Shown: positions 12,570 to 33,260 of the stretch, in pieces
Layout of the letters: every line of letters starts with the position of its first letter
How positions within the stretch are numbered: position 1 is the first letter of the stretch
DNA from: Candidatus Bathyarchaeota archaeon
GTDB lineage: Archaea > Thermoproteota > Bathyarchaeia > 40CM-2-53-6 > RBG-13-38-9
Length of the DNA: 64,000 nt
Direction: 5' to 3'
NCBI GenBank assembly: GCA_963807605.1
Contig: CAWECG010000005.1
Span: 11,761-75,760, forward strand
Program-made: the position numbers and the translations under genes
Notes under the pieces: model-generated
Told to the model about the DNA's origin: nothing
Seen by the model: the letters and a program-made list of their open reading frames with translations, nothing else
Database searches by the model: none

Positions 12570-12582
12570 CTAGCGCGCGCTT
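12570..12582. repeat. GC-palindrome junction motif CTAGCGCGCGCTT (intergenic)
   Basis: Same motif as the demonstrable junction fillers at 20251, 20399 and 21221. Confidence 0.6.
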
Positions 12583-16108: not shown

Positions 16109-19084
16109 ATGAGATCTGGATTGAATCGAAGACTCCCATTTGATATGTTCCAGAGGTACATGCTTACAAAGGAGATCATCGATGCCGTCAAGGGAATTCG
16201 AAACGCGGCTATCTTGGATGTCGGCGGTCATCCAGGCGTCATTTCAGACTTTTTGCCCATGGATGAAACGTACGTTATAGACTTGAAGGTTTGCAGGAAG
16301 AGAAATTTCATAAGAGCCGACTGTCAATTCTTGCCCTTTAGGAGCAGAGTTTTCGATGCCGTTACCAGCATCGATGTTTTGGATCATCTTCCTAAAGGAA
16401 AACGTCTTCCAGTTCTGTACGAACTACTTAGAGTGAGCAGACGCTTCGTAGCCATAGCCGCCCCTTTTGATTCGGAAGACGTGAGAAGGGCAGAAGATAC
16501 TCTCTACGACTACGTCGTGAATGTGCTTAGACGAGAGGACGAGAATCTCAGGGAGCACGCCATGTATGGCCTTCCGAATCTAAATGAGCTCCGAAATTTC
16601 CTCGATTCCCAGAAGCTAGTTCATTTGGAGTTCTCAAACGGTTTCTTGAGCAGCTGGCTTCCAATGCAAATGTTGAACTTTCGCATCTCAAGTCCAGAAG
16701 TCTATCAACGGGTGAACCAACTTTACAACTTTGCATTCTACCAGTACGACAATCTAGAACCCTCCTATCGAAAAATCATATTGATCGACAAAATTTCTAA
16801 GGACTCAACAGAACTTTCAGCTAGGACTGAGTCCATTAAGAAGAGAGAACTGGAAGACCGCTCATCGGAGAAACTCGAGCTCCTTCAGCGCGCACGCGCT
16901 AAGCTTGCCCTGGCTCTGGGCATCGCTCTGGATGAAGGTTTGCAGGGCCTATTTCGAAAGACCGTCGATCATTATGTTAAGCGACGTAAGCAATTCTTTG
17001 AGCTTGATCGTGATGAACAGTATCAGATATGGCTAAAGAACAATGACTTGACTGAAAAGAAAGTTCTTGAAATGCAGCAGGAAATTTCAAAGCTGAGTTT
17101 CAAACCGAAGATCAGTATTGTTATGCCTGTCTACAATACGAGTGAAGAATGGCTCAAATTAGCGATAGAATCCGTTTCAAATCAATCCTATCCCAACTTG
17201 GAACTCTGCATAGTTGATGATGCCTCAACAAATGCATATGTCAGGAAGATTCTCAAGTCTTATGGCGCAAGGGATAACAGAATCAAGGTTAGATTTCTGG
17301 AAAAAAATCTCGGGATCTCTGGGGCGTCGAACGAAGCCTTAGCGATGGCTAGTGGGGATTTTGTGGGATTTTTGGACCATGATGATGAGCTTACAAAGGA
17401 TGCCCTGTTTGAGGTTGTCAAGGTTCTTGATCAGAATCCGAAATTGGATTTGATCTATAGTGATGAAGATAAGAAGGATTTGAATGACCGCAGGGTTGAG
17501 CCCTTCTTCAAGCCTGATTGGTCCCCAGACCTTTTGCTGTCTATGAACTACTTATGCCATTTCAATGTGATAAGAAAGAGCTTGATAGATGAGGTTGGCG
17601 GTTTCCGCTTGGGCTTCGAGGGTAGCCAAGATTATGATCTGTTCTTGAGGGTTACGGAGTTGACCGATAAGATTGCGCACCTTCCAAGACCTCTCTACAG
17701 CTGGCGTAAAGTTCGCGGCTCCGCTGCAGCCTCGACGGAGGCGAAGCCATACGCTCGGGAGGCTTCAAAGAAGGCCTTACGCGAGGCTATTAATAGGCGT
17801 GGGCTGTCCGGAGAAGTAACAGACGGCTTTGGCGGTCACTACCACATTCAATACTCAATCAGAGGCACACCCCTAGTGAGCATCATAATACCGACAAAGG
17901 ACCGGCTTGATCTATTGAATCGTTGCATAGAGAGCATCGAGTCAAACACATTTTACAAGAACTACGAGATAGTCATCGTTGATAACGAAAGCATCGAACC
18001 CGCTACCCTTGACTATCTTAAATCTCAACCTCATACCGTCGTAAGGTTTGAGGGCCCCTTCAACTTCTCAAAGATCAATAATTTCGGTGCTAAGCATGCT
18101 AAAGGTGAACATCTACTTTTCTTGAATAATGATGTTGAGGTTGTTGATGGGGATTGGCTGGGCGCAATGCTTGAGCACTCACAGCGTACTGAGGTCGGAA
18201 TAGTTGGGGGGCTCCTGCTATATCCTAGTGATGAAACCGTGCATGCTCCAAGCACAATTCAGCATGCAGGAGTGATCGTAGGGGTTGGAGGAGTGGCTGG
18301 GCACGCATTCAAGTACAAGCTGGCAGACGACTCTCAATACTTCGATCTACACAGGGTCATTCGAAATTGCAGTGCAGTGACGGCCGCCTGTGCAATGATG
18401 AAGCGAAACGTATTCGAGGAGGTTGGCGGGTTCGATGAGAATCTCAAGGTGGCATTCGGCGATATAGACCTCTGTCTACGTGTGAGGGAGAAGGGATACC
18501 GAATCGTCTATACACCACACGCCGTGCTGCGCCATCATGAGAGCGCAACTAGAGGCGAGATGCATCCGTTCGAGGACGAGACCTACATGATAGATCGGTG
18601 GAGAAGCTTCTTCATTAGAGGCGATCCTTACTACAACCCCAACTTGACGCTTCTCAAAGAGGACTATTCTCTTGCATCGAAAGGATCCGTCATCAGACCT
18701 CTCTCAGTGCTTTTCGACATTTACTATCTCAGACCAGATTTACGGAGGATCTGCCCTGAAGCGCGTAATGGTGATTATCAGAGGCTTATCGACTGGGCGG
18801 CCACTAGTGGCATAACAGTCGGTGCTGTGAGAGTGGCACTTCGACCCTACGGTGCCTACTATGCCTCCAATGCTTCTGATGGTGTAAAGCCGCTAGCCGC
18901 TTTGATAAATCTCTACAATTATAGGATAGAGCTCCAAAGTGGGTATCCTGAGGTTTTGAGAGGGGAATTTCGACGCTTGGTCAGCTGGGCAAATGAGGTG
19001 ATTGCTAAGACTTTTGATGATAAAGCGTATACTGCCTTGAAGCCATACGAGGCAAGCTACCGTTCACTCATGGAAAGCATATGA
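16109..19084 (+). CDS. Multidomain methyltransferase-GT2-GT2 glycosyltransferase (WsaE-like) with two C-terminal RxDL/EL...PE repeats
   Basis: ILDVGG MTase motif; ISIVMPVYN...FLDHDD...YSDEDK...FKPDWSPD...GSQDYD; VSIIIPTKD...FLNND...SAVTAAC. Confidence 0.88.
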   Translation: MRSGLNRRLPFDMFQRYMLTKEIIDAVKGIRNAAILDVGGHPGVISDFLPMDETYVIDLKVCRKRNFIRADCQFLPFRSRVFDAVTSIDVLDHLPKGKRLPVLYELLRVSRRFVAIAAPFDSEDVRRAEDTLYDYVVNVLRREDENLREHAMYGLPNLNELRNFLDSQKLVHLEFSNGFLSSWLPMQMLNFRISSPEVYQRVNQLYNFAFYQYDNLEPSYRKIILIDKISKDSTELSARTESIKKRELEDRSSEKLELLQRARAKLALALGIALDEGLQGLFRKTVDHYVKRRKQFFELDRDEQYQIWLKNNDLTEKKVLEMQQEISKLSFKPKISIVMPVYNTSEEWLKLAIESVSNQSYPNLELCIVDDASTNAYVRKILKSYGARDNRIKVRFLEKNLGISGASNEALAMASGDFVGFLDHDDELTKDALFEVVKVLDQNPKLDLIYSDEDKKDLNDRRVEPFFKPDWSPDLLLSMNYLCHFNVIRKSLIDEVGGFRLGFEGSQDYDLFLRVTELTDKIAHLPRPLYSWRKVRGSAAASTEAKPYAREASKKALREAINRRGLSGEVTDGFGGHYHIQYSIRGTPLVSIIIPTKDRLDLLNRCIESIESNTFYKNYEIVIVDNESIEPATLDYLKSQPHTVVRFEGPFNFSKINNFGAKHAKGEHLLFLNNDVEVVDGDWLGAMLEHSQRTEVGIVGGLLLYPSDETVHAPSTIQHAGVIVGVGGVAGHAFKYKLADDSQYFDLHRVIRNCSAVTAACAMMKRNVFEEVGGFDENLKVAFGDIDLCLRVREKGYRIVYTPHAVLRHHESATRGEMHPFEDETYMIDRWRSFFIRGDPYYNPNLTLLKEDYSLASKGSVIRPLSVLFDIYYLRPDLRRICPEARNGDYQRLIDWAATSGITVGAVRVALRPYGAYYASNASDGVKPLAALINLYNYRIELQSGYPEVLRGEFRRLVSWANEVIAKTFDDKAYTALKPYEASYRSLMESI

Positions 19085-19904: not shown

Positions 19905-20836
19905 TGTGTCCCTCTATATGAAGGAGGAGAATAGTCATGAAGAGTTGGGAGAGGGACATAATTGGATCTCGTGCTGCGTCGAAGAAGGTGGATTATCCAT
20001 AGAAAACTGAAAGGCCGGAAGATCAGGGATATCGTTAGTGCGCTGCGGATAAACGAGAAGACCGTTGACCGATGGTGTATCGTCCATCAGAAAGATGGGT
20101 GGGAGAGGCGGGTAGTAAAGTCTAGAAGACCACACCGATATTACAAGACCCCACAGTCAACAGTGAACCTCATCGTCGAGCTGAGACACAGCAAACGTTG
20201 GGGGCCAAACAAGATCGAAGGATACCTAAGAAACTACAAGGTCGAAGGCAAGCGCGCGCGTCGAAGGCATCACACCTGTCAACCATAGAACCATCCATCA
20301 AATCCTAGTCGAAGACAGACTGAATAATCCTATCTCTGCACCCAGAAAGGTCTGGGGTAAGCACAGATTCCAGCGGGAGCACAGCAACAGCCCATGGCAA
20401 GCGCGCGCTAGGCGACCATATCCGCTTCATTCCAGGCTCAAGAATCCACCACAACCCAACAACAGAGCAGGCGATCAAGCTCCTTGAAGAATACATGATA
20501 CAATGCGGGAAGCCCAAACAGATACTGCCAGATAGAGGAACCCAGTTCTATCCTGCCAGAGGAGGCAGGTCAGAGTTCACAAAGTTCTGCAGTGGAAATA
20601 GTATCGAGCATATTGTCACAAGCGTAAGGAGACCATCCACAATCGGCAAGATCGAGTCCTTCCACAAAGCGTACGTCTGTGAGTCATGGATGTTTCCCAC
20701 CCATGAAAATTTTGTGAGTTACTGGAATTACGAAAGACCTCCTCAGGGAATCAGTTATCTATATCCAGCAGACACATATTTTAGAGAGCTAAACATACTC
20801 ACAGATGTGGGGGGGATAGAAGACTGGGAAGTTTGA
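19905..20836 (+). mobile_element. IS481-family transposase, inactivated (ends approximate)
   Basis: HTH plus SRRPH, WGPNKI, REHSNSPWQ, DH.RF, P..IL.DRGTQF and TIGKIESFHK integrase-core motifs; broken at 20251 and 20401. Confidence 0.85.
20241..20269 (+). repeat. 10-bp direct duplication GTCGAAGGCA flanking filler AGCGCGCGC
   Basis: gtcgaaggca-agcgcgcgc-gtcgaaggca read directly from the sequence. Confidence 0.95.
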
Positions 20837-21028
20837 ACGGTTGGCGCTACTCTCAGTCACGCGCGCGCTTCATTGTGTGCTGATCACGCGTCTGTTCTGA
20901 GATCTCTCTGAACCTTTGATGTCCGTATTCTACTTCTCTCCAGATATCGCCCACCATCAGTGCAGCACCGAATGATTGAATTGTTGCGAAGCGAATTGAC
21001 TGGCTCAGGTTACTTGTGGCGATCTTGA

Positions 21029-22351
21029 GTGATGGGAACTCTTAAGCTCGCGATCCAATATGCACGCAGGTTTGGTTTGAGGAGATCGGCCGCAGCACTT
21101 CTTCTGTACCTCAGTCGGAGATTGAACTCAGATATAGGCGTGAGCCATGTGGACGCGTTGCTCAAGTGTCGGTACTATGTGAAGAGGGAGTTGCTGAGTT
21201 ATGATTTCTCGTCAACGGATAGCGCGCGCTATGTGAAGAGGGAGTTGCTGAGTTATGATTTCTCGTCAACGGATCTCGCGAAGAACAAAGCCATCATGGA
21301 TAAATGGAATGCGACTTCGCCCAAGACGATATCTTGTGTGAACTGGTTTCTCCCGGACTATCATTCACCTTACGCTGGCGGTATTTATACTGCTCTGCGT
21401 TTTGCTAAGGCTTTCTCAACAGAAGGCGTATTGAACAGGATCATCATATTTGATGGCCCCTACCATCGAGACCCTCGTGCTACAGCTTCGGAGATCAGAT
21501 CTCTGTTTCCGAAAATGGGTAGACTCGAAGTCCTCGTCAACCCTTCTAAGATACCGGACAGCACAATATGTATTGCAACATTTTGGCCGACTGCATACGT
21601 CGCGCTGAAGTTCAACAACACACAAGGCAAGTACTACCTCATCCAAGATTTCGAGCCACTATTCTACGCAGCGGGACCATACTATGGACTTGCAGAAGCG
21701 ACCTACAGATTTGGGTTCCTAGGGATCACGAATGGTCCGAGACTGAAAGAGATCTATCGAAACCAGTACGGAGGTGACGCTGAATACTTCTTTCCTACCC
21801 CAGATACGAATCTGTTCTATCCCTCGCCTGATCAGCCTAGGTCCAAGGTATCCCGCGTCTTCTTCTATGCCAGACCCGCGATGGAGAGGAATGCTTTCGA
21901 CCTGGGAATCCTGGCACTGGAAAGACTCAAGAGAGCTCATCCGGATTTGGAAATCGTTACTGCTGGCTGGGATCTGACTGCACACGAGATGCCAATCCCC
22001 GTCACGAACTATGGCTTGCTTAGCTTGAAGAAAACTGCTGAACTTTATCGGAGCTGTGACATGGGGTTGGTCTTCATGTTCACTAGGCATCCTTCGTACC
22101 TTCCAGGGGAGTTGATGGCAAGCGGATGTGTCGTCATCACCAACAAGAATCCTGATAATGCGTGGCTGCTGCGTGACCGAGAGAACTGCCTGCTAACTGA
22201 GCCGACCGTATCCAGCATCCTGGAGACATTTGAGCTGGCCATGGCGGATTATGATCTGCGAAGGAGTATTGTGAGGAGAGGGTCGGAGACTGTGAAGCAA
22301 ACGAACTGGGACTTGGAGATACGTCGCGTCATGAAGTTCATAACTGGCTAG
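21029..22351 (+). CDS. GT4 glycosyltransferase, WsaF-like rhamnosyltransferase family
   Basis: NWFLP...GGIYTALRF, ATFWPTAY, YLIQDFEP.FY, FFYARP...RN.F.LG, HPSYLP.ELMASG. Confidence 0.8.
   Translation: MMGTLKLAIQYARRFGLRRSAAALLLYLSRRLNSDIGVSHVDALLKCRYYVKRELLSYDFSSTDSARYVKRELLSYDFSSTDLAKNKAIMDKWNATSPKTISCVNWFLPDYHSPYAGGIYTALRFAKAFSTEGVLNRIIIFDGPYHRDPRATASEIRSLFPKMGRLEVLVNPSKIPDSTICIATFWPTAYVALKFNNTQGKYYLIQDFEPLFYAAGPYYGLAEATYRFGFLGITNGPRLKEIYRNQYGGDAEYFFPTPDTNLFYPSPDQPRSKVSRVFFYARPAMERNAFDLGILALERLKRAHPDLEIVTAGWDLTAHEMPIPVTNYGLLSLKKTAELYRSCDMGLVFMFTRHPSYLPGELMASGCVVITNKNPDNAWLLRDRENCLLTEPTVSSILETFELAMADYDLRRSIVRRGSETVKQTNWDLEIRRVMKFITG
21175..21274 (+). repeat. 46-bp direct duplication flanking filler AGCGCGCG (in-frame, +18 codons)
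   Basis: 21175-21220 equals 21229-21274; protein reads YVKRELLSYDFSSTD-SAR-YVKRELLSYDFSSTD. Confidence 0.97.
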
Positions 22352-22362
22352 GAGTCATTGGC

Positions 22363-25300
22363 TCAGAAGCCGAGCAGGCGCGGATTGATGAGGTAACAGG
22401 CATGTTCAGATTCGGTTGACAGATTCTTGTTGTAAAACGGGTCACCATTCGCAATATCATCTCTTAGCTTCTTAATGAAGTAGTTGTAGTCGGAAGACGG
22501 GAATGCCTTCCCTCTTGTTGCCCCTTCACGATGATAGAGGACTGCATAAGGATTGTACACAATCTGGTATCCTGCCTTTCTCATTCTGATGCAAAGATCG
22601 ACATCGTTTCCTCCAACCACAAGGCGTTCATCGAAACCTCCTACAGCCTTGAAGACATCTCTCCTAACAAGCATGCAGGCTGCGGTGACTGCTGAGCAGT
22701 TGCGGATCATGTGTGCTAATCCAAAGTAGCCTGGTTCGGCGTTTGGCATTCCGCGAAAAGGATGACCTGCTGTTCCTCCCAGTCCCAAGACCACGCTTGC
22801 ATGTTGGATTCGACCATCGGGATAGAGCAACTTCGCTCCAACACAGGCCACATCGTTTCTGGTGTCAAGTATCCCGACCATCTCCCCTAGCCAATCCGCT
22901 TGCATGGCCTCGGTGTCGTCGTTGAGGAACAGTAAGTAGCGTCCCCGTGCTGTGCTAGATGCGGAGTTGTTGAATTTTGCGAAGTTGAATTCATCCTCGA
23001 ATCTGATGATCCTGTGGCCAAGAGATCGCAGATAATCCAACGTTTCCGGCTTTCGACTATCGTGATCAACTACCACTATCTCGAAGTTTCTATATGCCGT
23101 TTTCTTCTGAACGCTCTCTATGCAAGTCTTCAACAAGTTCGGATTGTCATGTGTTACTATGATGATGCTTACGAGCGAGTCGCCCTTCGGGATGTACTTT
23201 ACGCGGTACCATTGGTTATAGCCATCGAGGATTCCCCCATGAATTCCTCGTCGCTCAAGAGCTTGTGCGAGCGCCTGTTTTGCCGCCTCCCTTGCTGTCG
23301 GTTTGGCTGACAAGGATAGTGCAGTCGAGGTAGGGGTCATCCTCCAACTGTAGATGGACTTCGAGACGTGATAGATTTGGTTAGTCCTCTCGACCGCCCT
23401 CAGTGCAAGATCGTAATCTTGACTCCCTTCAAAGCCTGCGCGGAAGCTCCCGAGCTCTTCAAGAAGAGAACGTCGGTAGACTATGAAATGCGGGATGTAG
23501 TTCATCGAGAGGAATAAGTCAGGAGACCAGTCCGGCTTGAAGAAGGGATCGATTCGTTTGTCGTCAACGTCTATCTTGTCCTCATCAGAGTATATGATAT
23601 GTGCGTCAGGGTGCTCATTGACGCACTTGACCACTTCATACAGGGCTTGATCAGTCAGCTGATCATCGTGATCAAGAAACGCTACGAATTCTCCCATTGC
23701 AAGCTCTATCGCCGCGTTGGATGCCTGTGCAATACCCGATCTCTTGCGGAGGAAACTGACTTTCACTCTGTGATCAAGTTTGCGATAGTAGTCCAGCGTT
23801 CGTGCCACGGACTGGCGCGTCGAGCTATCGTCTACTATGCACAACTCCCAGTTCTCGTAGATCTGACATCGTACTGATTCTATTGCCGCTCTGAGACATC
23901 TATCATCAGTCTCAAAAACGGGCATGACTATGCTGACAAGTGGTTTCTTGAACATCTTCGCAATTTCCAGCCTGAGTTTCGGGATTCTCACCTGGTCTGG
24001 CGGATCGCTAGCAAGGAAGATTTGATACTGTTTATTCAATGGAAGAGCCATGAAGGCCTTACGCGAAATGTGATGACTTGCTGGTGGCGCCGCATTCTTT
24101 CTGGAGGCTACCAATCTTGCCATCATCATGGTCTGAGAAAAGAGCATCTCCAGAATCCTGCGTCTCAGGCTCTTAGGTGGAAGCTTCTCGACCAGAAGTT
24201 GCCTGTAGCCAAGAATTAGTTGCCACCCAAGGCTTCCTTCTATTTCCCCAAGTTTGCGCTGCACTGAGTCTTTCTCGTCTGCAGTTCTGGCTAACGCTTC
24301 TCTTATTTCCCCAAGTTTGCGCTGCACTGAGTCTTTCTCGTCTGCAGTTCTGGCTAACGCTTCTCTTATTTCCCCAAGTTTGCGCTGCACTGAGTCTTTC
24401 TCGTCTGCAGTTCTGGCTAACGCTTCTCTTATTTCCCCAAGTTTGCGCTGCACTGAGTCTTTCTCGTCTGCAGTTCTGGCTAACGCTTCTCTTATTCGAG
24501 CAAGTTCGACCCAGGGACTCGACTTGTACCATTCAGCATACCGCATCAGTCGGCGATAATCTTGATCAACACGATCGTCGACAGTATTCCCGGCCCATTC
24601 CACGAGACGACCATAGTCGCCTGCCAGAACTTCTGGAAAAGCTTGCTGGAGATCGCCTCTCATCATATACAATTGGAGAAGCACTGAAAGAGGATCGGAG
24701 AGAGATTTCGAGAGCCTGTTAATTAGCGCATTTCTTGACGCAACCGCTCGCGCGTTAGCCTTCAGGTATTCTGCCTCGCTCCCCCATATCAGCCCCTGCA
24801 CTTCAGTAGAGATTTGTCGTTTTCCTGTTCGTCGTATCGGTTTGAAGGCTTCAACTCTCAGTTCATATAATTCCCTGGCCTTCTTTTCCCTAAGGTTGCC
24901 GATTCTCTCCGCTGAAGGCAGCCGCGTGATTCTGCTGAACCCAGTCTTCAAGAGCTGGTGACTGAGTAGATCGTAATCATATCCTGAGCGGTGAAAATCT
25001 GACCAGTGACTTTGATTACCATAGAATGTCGAGGCAAGGCGGTCTAGGTCTCCAATTCTATGCTCTAGATTTTGAGTCAGAAGGTAGATGCGACATAGGG
25101 CAGAAAAGTCCGGGCAAGAGATCTCGAGCCGTGAGCCTTTCTTCATGATACGGTAGGATTCTTTGAGGAAGAGCAATCCGTCAGCGTAAGAAAGGTGCTC
25201 TAGTAGATGCGAGCAGTAAACCCCCTTAGTGACTTCCGAGTCGAAAGGCAAACACGTGGCATCCGCAACAACATCAATTCCAGGAGCAGGTCTCACGTCA

Positions 25301-25368
25301 ACCTGGATAGCTTCCGGCCAGTGCTGGAACTGTCCGCTTCCAATCTCAATATGCACATCTCCTTTCAT
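22363..25368 (-). CDS. Multidomain methyltransferase-coiled coil-GT2-GT2 glycosyltransferase (WsaE-like)
   Basis: IEIGSG...DA..LPF...SHLLEH MTase; 21-aa heptad repeats; two GT2 domains paralogous to 16109-19084. Confidence 0.9.
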   Translation of the reverse strand: MKGDVHIEIGSGQFQHWPEAIQVDVRPAPGIDVVADATCLPFDSEVTKGVYCSHLLEHLSYADGLLFLKESYRIMKKGSRLEISCPDFSALCRIYLLTQNLEHRIGDLDRLASTFYGNQSHWSDFHRSGYDYDLLSHQLLKTGFSRITRLPSAERIGNLREKKARELYELRVEAFKPIRRTGKRQISTEVQGLIWGSEAEYLKANARAVASRNALINRLSKSLSDPLSVLLQLYMMRGDLQQAFPEVLAGDYGRLVEWAGNTVDDRVDQDYRRLMRYAEWYKSSPWVELARIREALARTADEKDSVQRKLGEIREALARTADEKDSVQRKLGEIREALARTADEKDSVQRKLGEIREALARTADEKDSVQRKLGEIEGSLGWQLILGYRQLLVEKLPPKSLRRRILEMLFSQTMMMARLVASRKNAAPPASHHISRKAFMALPLNKQYQIFLASDPPDQVRIPKLRLEIAKMFKKPLVSIVMPVFETDDRCLRAAIESVRCQIYENWELCIVDDSSTRQSVARTLDYYRKLDHRVKVSFLRKRSGIAQASNAAIELAMGEFVAFLDHDDQLTDQALYEVVKCVNEHPDAHIIYSDEDKIDVDDKRIDPFFKPDWSPDLFLSMNYIPHFIVYRRSLLEELGSFRAGFEGSQDYDLALRAVERTNQIYHVSKSIYSWRMTPTSTALSLSAKPTAREAAKQALAQALERRGIHGGILDGYNQWYRVKYIPKGDSLVSIIIVTHDNPNLLKTCIESVQKKTAYRNFEIVVVDHDSRKPETLDYLRSLGHRIIRFEDEFNFAKFNNSASSTARGRYLLFLNDDTEAMQADWLGEMVGILDTRNDVACVGAKLLYPDGRIQHASVVLGLGGTAGHPFRGMPNAEPGYFGLAHMIRNCSAVTAACMLVRRDVFKAVGGFDERLVVGGNDVDLCIRMRKAGYQIVYNPYAVLYHREGATRGKAFPSSDYNYFIKKLRDDIANGDPFYNKNLSTESEHACYLINPRLLGF
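24241..24496 (-). repeat. Perfect tandem repeat, 4 x 63 bp (IREALARTADEKDSVQRKLGE)
   Basis: Identical units start at 24241, 24304, 24367 and 24430, with no spacers. Confidence 0.97.
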
Positions 25369-25492: not shown

Positions 25493-26055
25493 TCCAAGTG
25501 TGTGGAGCCATTCTGCTCCTTTCTGGGTGAATAATCCTTATTCTGCTGGAGGCTTGACGCCTTCGTATGTGAGGAGGTTCTTTATCTTGACTCGCAGTTT
25601 GACGCGTTCCCTGACCAGGAATGCTCTTCTTCTTACCTGCTCTCGGAGTGCCGCTGTCTCCTCATCAGGCATTTATGCTGAAGGTAACGCATTCAACCTT
25701 ACCAACTCAGCTATCACTTTAGAGTCGACTCTATCACTCTTTATCTTTGCCTCAGCGATGTAGCGTGTCTTCTTCGGATGAGAGACAGATACGTCATAAC
25801 CTTTCTTTCTCAGCTGTCTGTACAGCGGTACTACTTGATAGGAGGCTTCCATACCGATTCTATTTATTTGATAATCCGAGAGTATGAGAGAATTCTATCA
25901 TTCGCCATTCTTTTCTGACTGACTATTTCACCGTCACAACTCACGATTGTTGCATAGGTTGAATCCTTATGCACATCTAAACCGCAAAAGTAAGCGCTCA
26001 TAGTATGGCATGAGCGCTGACGCTTACCAAAAGCTCTTCCCATACCATCGCGCTA
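25493..26055 (-). mobile_element. IS110-family transposase remnant (5' part, with stops and a frameshift)
   Basis: ATG at 26001: MSAYFCGLDVHKDS...IGMEAS...HPKKTRYIAEAKIKSDRVDSKVIAEL (DEDD RuvC-like domain). Confidence 0.85.
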
Positions 26056-26085
26056 ACAACCCCCAACCTCACCCTTCTAGCGCGC

Positions 26086-27211
26086 TAGCCTCTTGCAATA
26101 TTCTTGGGCTTAACATGAAGATGTATACGTGTTTTTGATCATAAGATCGATGAGCTTTACACCCGCTCATGCCGTTTCTGGTGAAAAAGGAGTGAGCGAG
26201 TGTAAGGCTCTGTATGATCTGTTTCAGGCTTTGGATTTAACGTTTGTAGAACAAGTCTTGGAAAGAAGCTATGGGAGAAGAAGCAGGGTCGGCAGACCCC
26301 ATAGAAATTTACTTGGAATGTTCAAAGCAGAGCTCATCAAACGGCTAAGACATATCGAAAGCTATGAGGAATTGTATCGGCTCTTGTGGAGTGACGGTGA
26401 ACTCTGCAAACTCTGCGACATCAAGGAATCAGAGAATCCGTATCACCCATCAATACTTCTGAGGTTTCGACGTAGAATAGGCCCTCAAGGATTTCACCGC
26501 CTCATGAACCGTCTGATCAAACAGCTCGACCACAGCGGCATTCTGGACTCTGAAATCCTAGCGTTAGACGCCACATTCATCAAAGCTTACAGTCGAAGAG
26601 ATCCTCACAATACCCAGTGTGGATTATCTGATTCTGAAGCCAGATTACGAAAACAAGGTAGAAACGTTGTCTTAGGCTACGGCATCCATCTGGCTGTAGA
26701 TGCTGATAGTGAGATGCCGGTGGCAGTCACAGTGGAACCTGCAAACGTCAACGAAAAGAAGATCGCATCCCACCTACTCCATAAGACCTTGAAGTACAAA
26801 CATAGGTGGAAGAGCGTGACTGCAGACTCACAATACTCCAGCGAATCCTTCAGGGATAAGGCAAGATCCATAAGTGTTGAGCCTGTCATCCCCTACCCCA
26901 AGAACCAGATGAAAGGCAAAAGAGTTCTACGTGTTGACAGAAGATTCCACACCCACGGACCTGCAAGGCTGAGACGTCTCTACCGAAAACGATCCTCTGT
27001 TGAGAGAACCGTCTCACGATTGAAGACACACTTCGGACTGTGCCAACTTAGAACCCGAGGATTAAGAAACGTCCTGTCACATGTAGTCCTATGCTTGATC
27101 GCAATGTTGACGGCTGCTCTATCAGCGATCAAGCAAGGATACACCCACAGAATGCGGTCACCAGTCCAACTCATGAAATTGACAGGACTAAAGTAATATT
27201 GCAAGAGGCTG
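26086..27211 (+). mobile_element. IS1182/IS5-like insertion sequence with 17-bp terminal IRs and GCGCGC target duplication
   Basis: IRL tagcctcttgcaatatt 26086-26102; IRR aatattgcaagaggctg 27195-27211; GCGCGC at 26080-26085 and 27212-27217. Confidence 0.88.
26129..27196 (+). CDS. DDE transposase (DUF772 + DDE_Tnp_1 type), apparently intact
   Basis: GRP, P.HPS.L.RFR.R, ALDAT, GY..HLAVD, ADSQYSS, YRKRSSVER...RLK. Confidence 0.88.
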   Translation: MFLIIRSMSFTPAHAVSGEKGVSECKALYDLFQALDLTFVEQVLERSYGRRSRVGRPHRNLLGMFKAELIKRLRHIESYEELYRLLWSDGELCKLCDIKESENPYHPSILLRFRRRIGPQGFHRLMNRLIKQLDHSGILDSEILALDATFIKAYSRRDPHNTQCGLSDSEARLRKQGRNVVLGYGIHLAVDADSEMPVAVTVEPANVNEKKIASHLLHKTLKYKHRWKSVTADSQYSSESFRDKARSISVEPVIPYPKNQMKGKRVLRVDRRFHTHGPARLRRLYRKRSSVERTVSRLKTHFGLCQLRTRGLRNVLSHVVLCLIAMLTAALSAIKQGYTHRMRSPVQLMKLTGLK

Positions 27212-27217
27212 GCGCGC

Positions 27218-27655
27218 TAGGACTACTCCCTTGCATCCAAGGGATCTAGCATCAGACCCCTAGCGGTTCTTCTGGACATCTACTATTTCAGGCCAGAACT
27301 ACAGAGGACCTATCCTGAAGCAGGTAATGGAGATTATCAGAGGCTCATCGATTTGGCGGCCATCAACGGAGTGACAGTTGACGCTGCAAGGGCGTCGCTT
27401 AGACCCTATGGCTTCTACTACGCATCTAACACTTCTGATCGCAAAAAACCTCTTGCCACCTCAGTCGATCTTTATAATTCTAGGGTAGACCTTCAAAGCA
27501 TATACCCTGAGGTTTTGATGGGCGAGTTTCGAGGGCTGATTGGGTGGGCTAATGAAGTGCTCAGCAGTGATATTAGGGATGAAGCGTATTTCGTTTTGAA
27601 GCCTTATGAGGTCAGCTACCCTTCGCTGAGTGTACGAGAATTGGCGAATGCTTGA
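27218..27655 (+). pseudogene. C-terminal fragment of a paralog of 16109-19084 (continues at 26056-26079, left of the IS)
   Basis: DYSLASKGSSIRPLAVLLDIYYFRPELQR..PE...DYQRLID aligns with 18662-19084; 26056-26078 matches YNPNLTLL at 18632-18655. Confidence 0.88.
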
Positions 27656-31278: not shown

Positions 31279-31490
31279 AGCGCGCGCTTGCCAAATTATG
31301 AGAATAGGCTCAAGAAAACACCGATTATTTTGTAGCGACCGCAGCAAATGTCCAAATATTTTCTGGCCATTCATCAGATATGACTACTAGGTCTAAGATC
31401 TGGTGGTGTCCCAACAATTTTTAGGATAATAGCTATCGACATCAGTCTCATCAATTAGGACGGAACTGAAAAGCATATTTCTGCACCCGC

Positions 31491-33260
31491 TTACTTTCTC
31501 CCCTCTTGTTGTCTTTTTGGATCAGTAGCTACCTCTCCCAAGATATTGACGCGCGCGTACGTAAACGAATCTTGTGATTGCGAAATCGAGTATAAGGTGG
31601 GCTTTGCATAAATCCTGATGTTCATCAGGCCTGCATCGGTACTAAGCAGGGTCTGCAGCTTCGAGAAATCCATGCGTGCTAGGCTAGGTGCGTCGAAGAA
31701 GTTGATCATGGGCATGTCATTCCTAAAGCTAGCTATAAGAATCATTTGAGAGATGCATGACGTGATTCGTCCATATTGCGAGCTCACGCTGGCCAAGTAA
31801 TCCAGGACAACAAAGTCTGCATGATCGATTCCATCAATGGCGCGCTCGGATGGATCATCAAAGGTTACGTTGATATTCTTCTCACTTAGTCTCAGATATG
31901 TGAGCAATACTTCTTGAGTCTTTATCCAGACGGAGGCTCCTTCAGGAACATGCGCCAAGATGAATTCCGCCGCGTTCCGATATCCAGAGTGTGGGTTTGT
32001 TACGACAGACAGGGAGGACGGCAGGATTGTGACAATCAGACTAATGACGAGGATTGTCTTTGATACCCGTCCGAACCTGTGAGTCCTGAAATGAACCTGA
32101 CCAAGCTTGTCTATCTCTCTCGCAAGCGACACTGTACCACGAGCTGAGAGTATTGCAATTGGCACCAGTGCCGGAAGAATTACGCGAGCGTATGGTGGCC
32201 ATAAAGACGAGAAATACACAAAAAATGTGGAGAACCATATAATTAGGAGGATGTCGTCAACGCTCCTCTTGACTATCCCCCTTGCACCACCCACCACAGC
32301 AAGTGCTAGAACTGGGACGGCAACAGAACCTAGTAGGACTCTCAAATAGAAATCAGCGGTCACAAAGGGTTGGAGGTTGTTTATCATTGCTTTTGTCGGC
32401 AAAACCACGTCATTTAGGAAGATGAATCCGTGAGCGACTCGTGATGGAATGTTTAACATCATAGCAAGGAAGGCATTCAAATCTGTGTAGGGGAATGGTT
32501 CGGCGATGTAAGCTAGAAACAGCAATACGAATACGAAGAAGGGGGCAGCTGACAGCCAAAGTCCAGAAATTGCTCGCGCTAATCGTCGACTCGCACGTGT
32601 AACGAGCATATGAATATGGAGGCCGTTCTTCCAACTATCTGAAACCGCGAAGATTGGTAGGAAAACCAAGATTACGATTAACGCTTGGAAGCCATAATAC
32701 TTGGTCGCAGTTGCCAGAGCTAGCAGAATCCCCCCCATCAAATAGATTGAGTTCTTTTGCTTGGCAATGGCCTGCGCGTATACGAAGATCGTGCAACTGA
32801 CGAACAATGTGAAGACCATGTCGGCTAGTGCCATTCTAGCGAAGAGAAGAAAAAAACCAGTGCTCGTCAGGATGGTGGTAGCGACTGCGGCTGTTGTCAA
32901 ATCATATGTGTTCCTAGTCCACACAAACGTCACAATGCACAAGAGGAGCGCTGCTATGCCAGATGTCGCCACTGCCACGTAATCATGCACTCCGAACATT
33001 CTAAACATGATCGACACGATCAAAGAGAAGAGACCCGGATCGTAGAACAAAAAGATCCCTCGCCCGAGGCCGCCGAAAGCAAGTGCAGACTCAACCCAGT
33101 AGAATTCATCCCAATGACAGAGACCATTCGCCGCGAAATTCCAGAAAATCATTAGGCCAGCCAGAACAAAAGGGCCGGCTACGCAGGAGATCTCAATTAA
33201 GGAAGACCTTTGAGTAATCACAACCCACCGGCTTCGAAAATCCCTTCGCATGTCAACCAC
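31491..33260 (-). CDS. ArnT/PMT-like (GT39/GT83) GT-C glycosyltransferase
   Basis: WDE..Y-type motif, ARMALADM, LATATKY, ARVILP.L; about 12 TM plus an external domain. Confidence 0.82.
   Translation of the reverse strand: MVDMRRDFRSRWVVITQRSSLIEISCVAGPFVLAGLMIFWNFAANGLCHWDEFYWVESALAFGGLGRGIFLFYDPGLFSLIVSIMFRMFGVHDYVAVATSGIAALLLCIVTFVWTRNTYDLTTAAVATTILTSTGFFLLFARMALADMVFTLFVSCTIFVYAQAIAKQKNSIYLMGGILLALATATKYYGFQALIVILVFLPIFAVSDSWKNGLHIHMLVTRASRRLARAISGLWLSAAPFFVFVLLFLAYIAEPFPYTDLNAFLAMMLNIPSRVAHGFIFLNDVVLPTKAMINNLQPFVTADFYLRVLLGSVAVPVLALAVVGGARGIVKRSVDDILLIIWFSTFFVYFSSLWPPYARVILPALVPIAILSARGTVSLAREIDKLGQVHFRTHRFGRVSKTILVISLIVTILPSSLSVVTNPHSGYRNAAEFILAHVPEGASVWIKTQEVLLTYLRLSEKNINVTFDDPSERAIDGIDHADFVVLDYLASVSSQYGRITSCISQMILIASFRNDMPMINFFDAPSLARMDFSKLQTLLSTDAGLMNIRIYAKPTLYSISQSQDSFTYARVNILGEVATDPKRQQEGRK

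Follow-up and report, generated by a model that had tools for sequence, protein, structure and literature searches.

Elements of the IS5 subgroup are ~1.2 kb and duplicate 4 bp of a short palindromic target, such as CTAG or YTAR, and elements of the IS1182 family range from 1330 to 1950 bp (both ISfinder). Palindromes or stem-loops serve as insertion targets for IS1272 and further members of the IS1182 family (Wan et al. 2017, PMC5678879, citing Siguier et al.), and in this family the duplication can include part of the palindrome, so that the target mimics an extension of the inverted repeat (IR) (PMC5678879). The targets of IS1272 vary in sequence and have loops, and the element replaces the palindrome without making a duplication (PMC5678879). 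In bacteria, ISPsy8, ISPa11, ISPpu9/10, and ISRm19/22 home to REP palindromes, which are imperfect hairpins of 20–40 bp, such that several unrelated IS families per genome enter an iterated extragenic palindrome and spare the genes (Tobes and Pareja 2006, PMC1525189).

In the genome of a Candidatus Bathyarchaeota archaeon (G000, with loci given below by contig, C1 to C5), there is an intact DDE insertion sequence of IS5/IS1182-like type, here called IS-1, at 26086–27211 of the window, which is the whole stretch of 64,000 nucleotides analysed (contig CAWECG010000005.1, positions 11,761 to 75,760). It is quite probable that this IS homes to short CG palindromes, duplicating the central GCGC, and that the window copy entered a pre-existing CTAGCGCGCGCTAG. 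The features of the element and its target, in window coordinates, are:

26086..27211, + strand: IS-1, the IS proper, 1126 bp, TAGCC... to ...GGCTG, boundaries common to 7 genome copies
26086..26102, + strand: left inverted repeat TAGCCTCTTGCAATATT, 16/17 positions matching the right repeat
27195..27211, - strand: right inverted repeat, reverse complement CAGCCTCTTGCAATATT, 17 bp
26129..27196, + strand: transposase ORF, 355 aa from GTG
26082..26085, no strand: left 4-bp target duplication GCGC, its length of 4 fixed by C3:1080296, C4:41602, and C3:246507
27212..27215, no strand: right 4-bp target duplication GCGC, abutting the right IS-1 end
26077..26081, no strand: left outer part of the probable pre-existing palindrome, CTAGC
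27216..27220, no strand: right outer part of the probable pre-existing palindrome, GCTAG

The transposase ORF matches Pfam DDE_Tnp_1 (PF01609) at 1.2e-25 (90.9 bits against a cut-off of 23), together with DUF772, and the catalytic triad D147, D233, E292 can be located in it, as can Y285-R288-E292-K299 (YREK). The DDE_Tnp_1 domain with its triad and the Y-(2)-R-(3)-E-(6)-K spacing, along with inverted repeats around a single transposase gene, are as in the IS4/IS5 superfamily. The true start is likely to be the ATG at 26150, as relatives align from approximately residue 20. The NCBIfam models place the element between IS1182 and IS5, both falling short of their cut-offs: the IS5 model NF033581 gives 109.5 bits against 140, though the match spans 3–280 of its 285 profile positions, and the IS1182 model NF033551 gives 126.8 bits, in three stretches, against 270.

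IS-1 resembles the IS5 subgroup in its size, its single ORF, its DDE domain with YREK, its DUF772 N-terminal domain, and its 4-bp duplication of a palindromic tetranucleotide, but here the tetranucleotide is GCGC and lies within a longer CG palindrome. At 1126 bp and 355 aa it is shorter than the IS1182 elements and outside their family range. It is like IS1272 in having an IS5-related DDE transposase that inserts into short non-coding palindromes, and it shares the palindromic-target preference of some IS1182 members (PMC5678879), but it keeps a 4-bp central duplication and has a single defined target, a CG palindrome with no loop.

The flanking repeats CTAGCGCGCTAG at 26077–26088 and CTGGCGCGCTAG at 27209–27220 are the sole two matches in the window with no more than one mismatch (0.06 by chance), and the inner repeat GCCTCTTGCAATATT at 26088–26102 has its inverted counterpart at 27195–27209. 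Outside each end of the window copy is GCGCGC, beyond which come CTA (left) and TAG (right). The flanking repeats, inner repeat, ORF, and paralogous string at 18647–18667 are all present in the sequence as the initial annotation had quoted them. That annotation took GCGCGC to be target DNA, the alternative being that it forms part of a 26-bp IR, and tabulation of the flanks across copies bears this out, since the outer run varies and the innermost 4 nt are a direct repeat.

There are seven full IS-1 copies in the genome. Five of the copies other than that in the window have 0–1 differences over 1058 interior positions, differing only beyond the boundaries, and have therefore moved very recently. 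Beyond their common end bases, TAGCC.../...AAGCTC, the outer CG stretches are from 3 to 9 nt in length. Faithful copying would be expected of a true terminus, yet the outer CG run varies, which identifies GCGCGC as target. The longest possible direct repeat in C3:1080296 and in C4:41602 is GCGC, and these two copies and C3:246507 allow a duplication of at most 4 bp. At C3:246507, ACGC is present at both ends, which is a direct repeat, where an inverted one would be ACGC/GCGT. Indeed, the 4 nt abutting both ends are equal in 18/20 full copies (six genomes, 65–100% transposase identity), and the phase is constant, being GCGC-IS-GCGC and never CGCG.

The variable outer runs and the direct 4-mer repeat therefore define an element of 1126 bp that duplicates 4 bp, with the consensus GCGC and a duplication length as in the IS5 subgroup. 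GCGC is itself palindromic, so that most copies cannot tell a direct from an inverted repeat, and the target argument leans on the one non-palindromic case (C3:246507) and on the run-length variation. The proposal that the filler was duplicated as the IS target thus stands as to the duplication, which is of 4 bp (GCGC) and not of 6. The 26-bp IR is an illusion, being the 17-bp IR prolonged by the palindromic target, and IS-1 is ordinary in kind and has a neatly defined target.

Were the CG run instead the true tip of the IS, with a 26-bp IR, the free palindromes elsewhere in the genome would be excision footprints. CGCGC is indeed beside every copy, in five genomes and at identities as low as 70%, and joining AGCGCGC and GCGCGCT with a GCGC overlap gives the 10-mer AGCGCGCGCT, the core of the free palindromes. 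Short repeats outside the run can be read as duplications in this case, these being CTAG (window), GGGT, TTA, and AGTCTAG (G008), but such an outer repeat is seen in only 4/12 copies and 3–4 nt repeats occur at the control rate (at approximately half of the control sites when these are given equal slack), and this reading of the flanks was rejected. The supposed tips also differ among identical copies. CTA/TAG is on both sides of the window copy and elsewhere adjoins no more than one end, and that in few copies, so that neither the CG run nor CTA/TAG is a constant part of the termini. IS-end remnants (TAGCC) are beside free runs in 7/119 cases, the chance rate, and the palindromes are abundant in seven relatives that have no detectable homologue of either transposase, IS-1's or that of the second lineage described below. 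That the run is an IS tip is therefore highly improbable and strongly disfavoured.

The CG run as a target is shared by a second lineage, IS-2, which is 1105 bp in length and has a transposase with 42% amino acid identity to that of IS-1 and an unrelated IR, GGGGTTGTCCCG...:

C3:162633, 256831, 458336, 702830, 1082192 and C1:532389, 587492 (genome G000): IS-2, seven copies, each in a palindrome centre

In 7/7 of these copies the flanks are AGCGCGC-IS-GCGCGC(T). Three miniature derivatives of IS-1-like elements are also in CG runs (C1:440992-441105, C3:149317-149785, and one in G001). In total, all 14 of the full copies in the genome from the two lineages, 6 in relatives, and the 3 miniatures abut CG palindromes, and a scan of genome contigs for the element returned four copies, three among relatives already counted and one new (L141). 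CG runs of at least 6 nt number 768 and make up ~0.2% of the genome, and these contain 14/14 full copies. Deleting the element and 4 bp restores AGCGCGCGCT exactly for the window copy, one G001 copy, 6/7 of the IS-2 copies, and the miniature at C3:149317-149785. In G008 and G012, the IS copies are in CG runs despite there being just 4 and 2 canonical palindromes in these genomes.

The six IS-1 copies other than that in the window are all between ORFs of at least 100 aa, at distances of 43–419 bp. The earlier suggestion that scars serve as landing sites for the IS fits these data, since two lineages and the miniatures are all in CG runs and always between ORFs. As with the REP-homing IS, several unrelated IS families per genome enter an iterated extragenic palindrome and spare genes (PMC1525189), and for both IS-1 and IS-2 insertion is confined to such a palindrome, which exists independently of the IS. 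The palindrome differs from REPs in being a perfect CG palindrome of 8–14 bp, in an archaeon (PMC1525189). This match to the REP-homing IS (PMC1525189) and to IS1182 members (PMC5678879) therefore makes it a new instance of a known habit. The palindromes lie in non-coding DNA, so that homing to them would let the IS spread without breaking genes.

An extra A directly follows the right end in two members of the identical set of five IS-1 copies (C1:381542 and C3:246507). At C3:246507 this A belongs to the ACGC/ACGC duplication, but at C1:381542 the left end abuts GCGC and the right end ACGC, which do not match as would be expected of a recent duplication. The stray A of C1:381542 may be a carried donor nucleotide, or the right end may be 1 nt longer. 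The A followed by a CG run in these two copies is like the A that borders free palindromes, which, with the unequal left and right run lengths in several identical copies, would be in keeping with a free IS copy having been captured at a chromosome break, with CG filler written at each joint between IS and flank, so that scar and insertion were one event. There is a reported precedent for an IS entering a break with no duplication of the target (bioRxiv 10.1101/2024.06.02.596822), and the window data alone, with 5 bp lost and a CG run on both sides, are fitted equally well by such a capture. Exact restoration of the modal 10-mer in 9 cases is not what one would expect from two fillers written independently, however, nor does capture agree well with the constant phase of GCGC-IS-GCGC, the direct repeat ACGC/ACGC at C3:246507, or the flanks of the window copy being contiguous in the intact paralog. 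Break capture is therefore considered unlikely, and homing to a palindrome already present is preferred.

On this preferred account, a DDE transposase of IS5/IS1182 kind would recognise short alternating-CG palindromes, make cuts staggered by 4 nt in the central GCGC, and insert to give ...GCGC-IS-GCGC.... The palindromes would be a separate, older, and lineage-wide feature of this archaeal family. At the window locus, the flanks are remnants of a glycosyltransferase paralog, of which an intact copy is present elsewhere in the window:

26056..26076, + strand: left remnant of the glycosyltransferase-paralog tail, homologous to 18635-18654
27219..27655, + strand: right remnant, a pseudogene fragment from the C-terminal repeat domain of that paralog
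18647..18667, + strand: intact paralogous site, with CAAAG (18655-18659) where the window locus has the palindrome and IS
25673..26055, - strand: broken IS110-like element adjoining the left remnant, its end ...CCATACCATCGCGCTA common to 4 other copies, after which the flanks diverge

The left remnant is ~22 bp (26056–26078), with 18/21 positions matching and one 1-nt indel by eye, and the right remnant is 73% identical to 18660–19000 over 341 bp, ungapped (blastn), and 69% over 115 aa (tblastn). The two flanks are contiguous in the intact paralog. Removing IS-1 and one GCGC gives the site before insertion as CTAGCGCGCGCTAG, which the genome contains at 5 further places; the duplication being 4 bp, the pre-insertion scar is therefore this canonical sequence. 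The filler had been thought to replace about 6 bp of the paralog sequence, and a replacement is indeed seen, of 5 bp (CAAAG). The most economical order would be that the palindrome first replaced these 5 bp in the dead paralog fragment and that IS-1 then entered the palindrome centre.

Relatives, metagenome contigs, and paralogs yielded no unoccupied allele for any of the IS copies, and this order of scar first is therefore one that we infer. Two 20-kb regions rich in IS and/or palindromes, compared with 3–5 relatives in search of an empty site, gave patchy 65–90% matches only. For the copy at C1:343581, the metagenome loci of the adjoining isocitrate/isopropylmalate dehydrogenase gene have 80–93% protein identity and their upstream DNA is unalignable, giving no empty site, and for the joined flanks of all 14 copies there is no spanning paralog except for the window copy.

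On the other side of the left remnant is the IS110-like element, for which Pfam DEDD_Tnp_IS110 matches two ORF fragments, each under the family cut-off. Elements of this kind share one end and then diverge:

window 25673-26055; G000 C5:73088, C3:48048, C4:74877, C4:3137: IS110-like elements sharing the end ...CCATACCATCGCGCTA

These may be a third element type that inserts beside CGCGC. The ORF at 22363–25368 on the minus strand encodes a 1001-aa methyltransferase/glycosyltransferase-like protein, in which a 20-aa unit (…IREALARTADEKDSVQRKLGE…) occurs four times in tandem at 24177–24560.

The free palindrome is common across this Bathyarchaeia genome, with 106 copies of the core AGCGCGCGCT against 5 for the reversed control. 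Counts within the same taxonomic family are 119, 63, 44, 40, 32, 30, 29, 28, and 16, with nearly none outside the family. Most are non-coding, 8% of the AGCGCGCGCT sites being in open frames of at least 450 nt, compared to 76% of random positions. In seven motif-rich relatives, with 16–63 palindromes each, there is no homologue (E<1e-10) of either transposase, which is weak evidence given that fragmented MAGs often lose repeats. A literature search for the 10-mer AGCGCGCGCT gave no relevant result. A 40-bp repeat adjoining one palindrome was set aside, as it looked like tRNA similarity. Besides the palindrome occupied by IS-1, the window carries:

12573-12580, 20401-20408, 20860-20868, 31280-31287, 31550-31557: further free CG palindromes of 8–9 nt, all preceded by A and followed by T

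The palindromes at 12573 and 31280 are between ORFs of at least 110 aa. Between two CG palindromes, at 20495–20836, there is a 113-aa ORF resembling the C-terminal portion of a transposase with an integrase core (rve), and from its position between palindromes it is therefore probably another IS remnant.

Where a paralog spans the site, the runs are seen to have replaced unrelated bases, ACCCTA at C1:353532, ATCA at C3:74808, and CAAAG in the window. At 21175–21274, in the 5' part of the ORF at 21029–22351, there is a 46-bp direct duplication of CG-free DNA with only AGCGCGCG between the copies, which looks like a staggered break that was filled in and joined with CG filler. At 20241–20269 a 10-bp direct repeat, GTCGAAGGCA, flanks AGCGCGCGC, and the 75%-identical paralog at C3:309531-309796 is without both the duplication and the run. 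Ends of paralog homology cluster at the runs, with 65–74 alignment ends per 10-nt bin compared to 10–20 elsewhere, a pile-up to which mobile elements homing to the runs contribute.

These observations bear on whether the IS could itself be the source of the free 10-mers, if it entered a natural AGCGCT and was excised with both copies of GCGC retained. The arithmetic works, in that AGCGCT plus 4 nt gives AGCGCGCGCT, and in the A(GC)nT series n=4, with 106 copies, is conspicuous against 44 for n=3 and 5 for n=5, a pattern that chance decay would not yield. The runs replace non-CG bases in the paralog comparisons, however, some lie between long CG-free duplications (46 bp at 21175–21274, 10 bp at 20241–20269), and the palindromes are abundant where the IS is not found. 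Retention of the duplication is considered highly improbable. The paralogs, the CG-free duplications, and the IS-less genomes rule against the palindromes being either excision footprints or retained duplications.

Candidates for what writes the palindrome were sought in the genome. There is no match to Pfam Prim-Pol in it, and across 40 relatives neither two small PriS-like genes nor a LigD-type polymerase gene co-varies with palindrome abundance. The LigD-type polymerase-domain gene (G000 C1:591371-592240) is directly followed by a Ku-like ORF, both named by eye, and has a weak, sub-threshold match to Pfam DNA_primase_S. The two would be an NHEJ pair, rare in archaea. Among the other genomes of the family the pair was seen just once, in G008 and with stops, and its presence does not follow palindrome abundance.

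As a more speculative proposal, considered less likely than not, the palindromes may be marks left at rejoined DNA ends by an undescribed route, to which at least three kinds of element (two IS5/IS1182-like and one IS110-like) would have independently evolved homing, the shared stray A then reflecting an excised IS that takes the 4-nt duplication of its donor along to a new site, as is the case for piggyBac.

As the CG palindromes are neither IS ends nor IS footprints, they need an explanation of their own; this was a question over which annotation of these genomes could have gone astray. With its 4-bp stagger and its defined palindromic target of 10 bp, the transposase would be a simple system for the study of target choice, and occupied and free palindromes, taken together, would provide a relative clock for both processes. 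The mobile elements of this archaeal lineage would appear to use the palindromes as gene-sparing landing pads, as the REP-homing IS do in bacteria.
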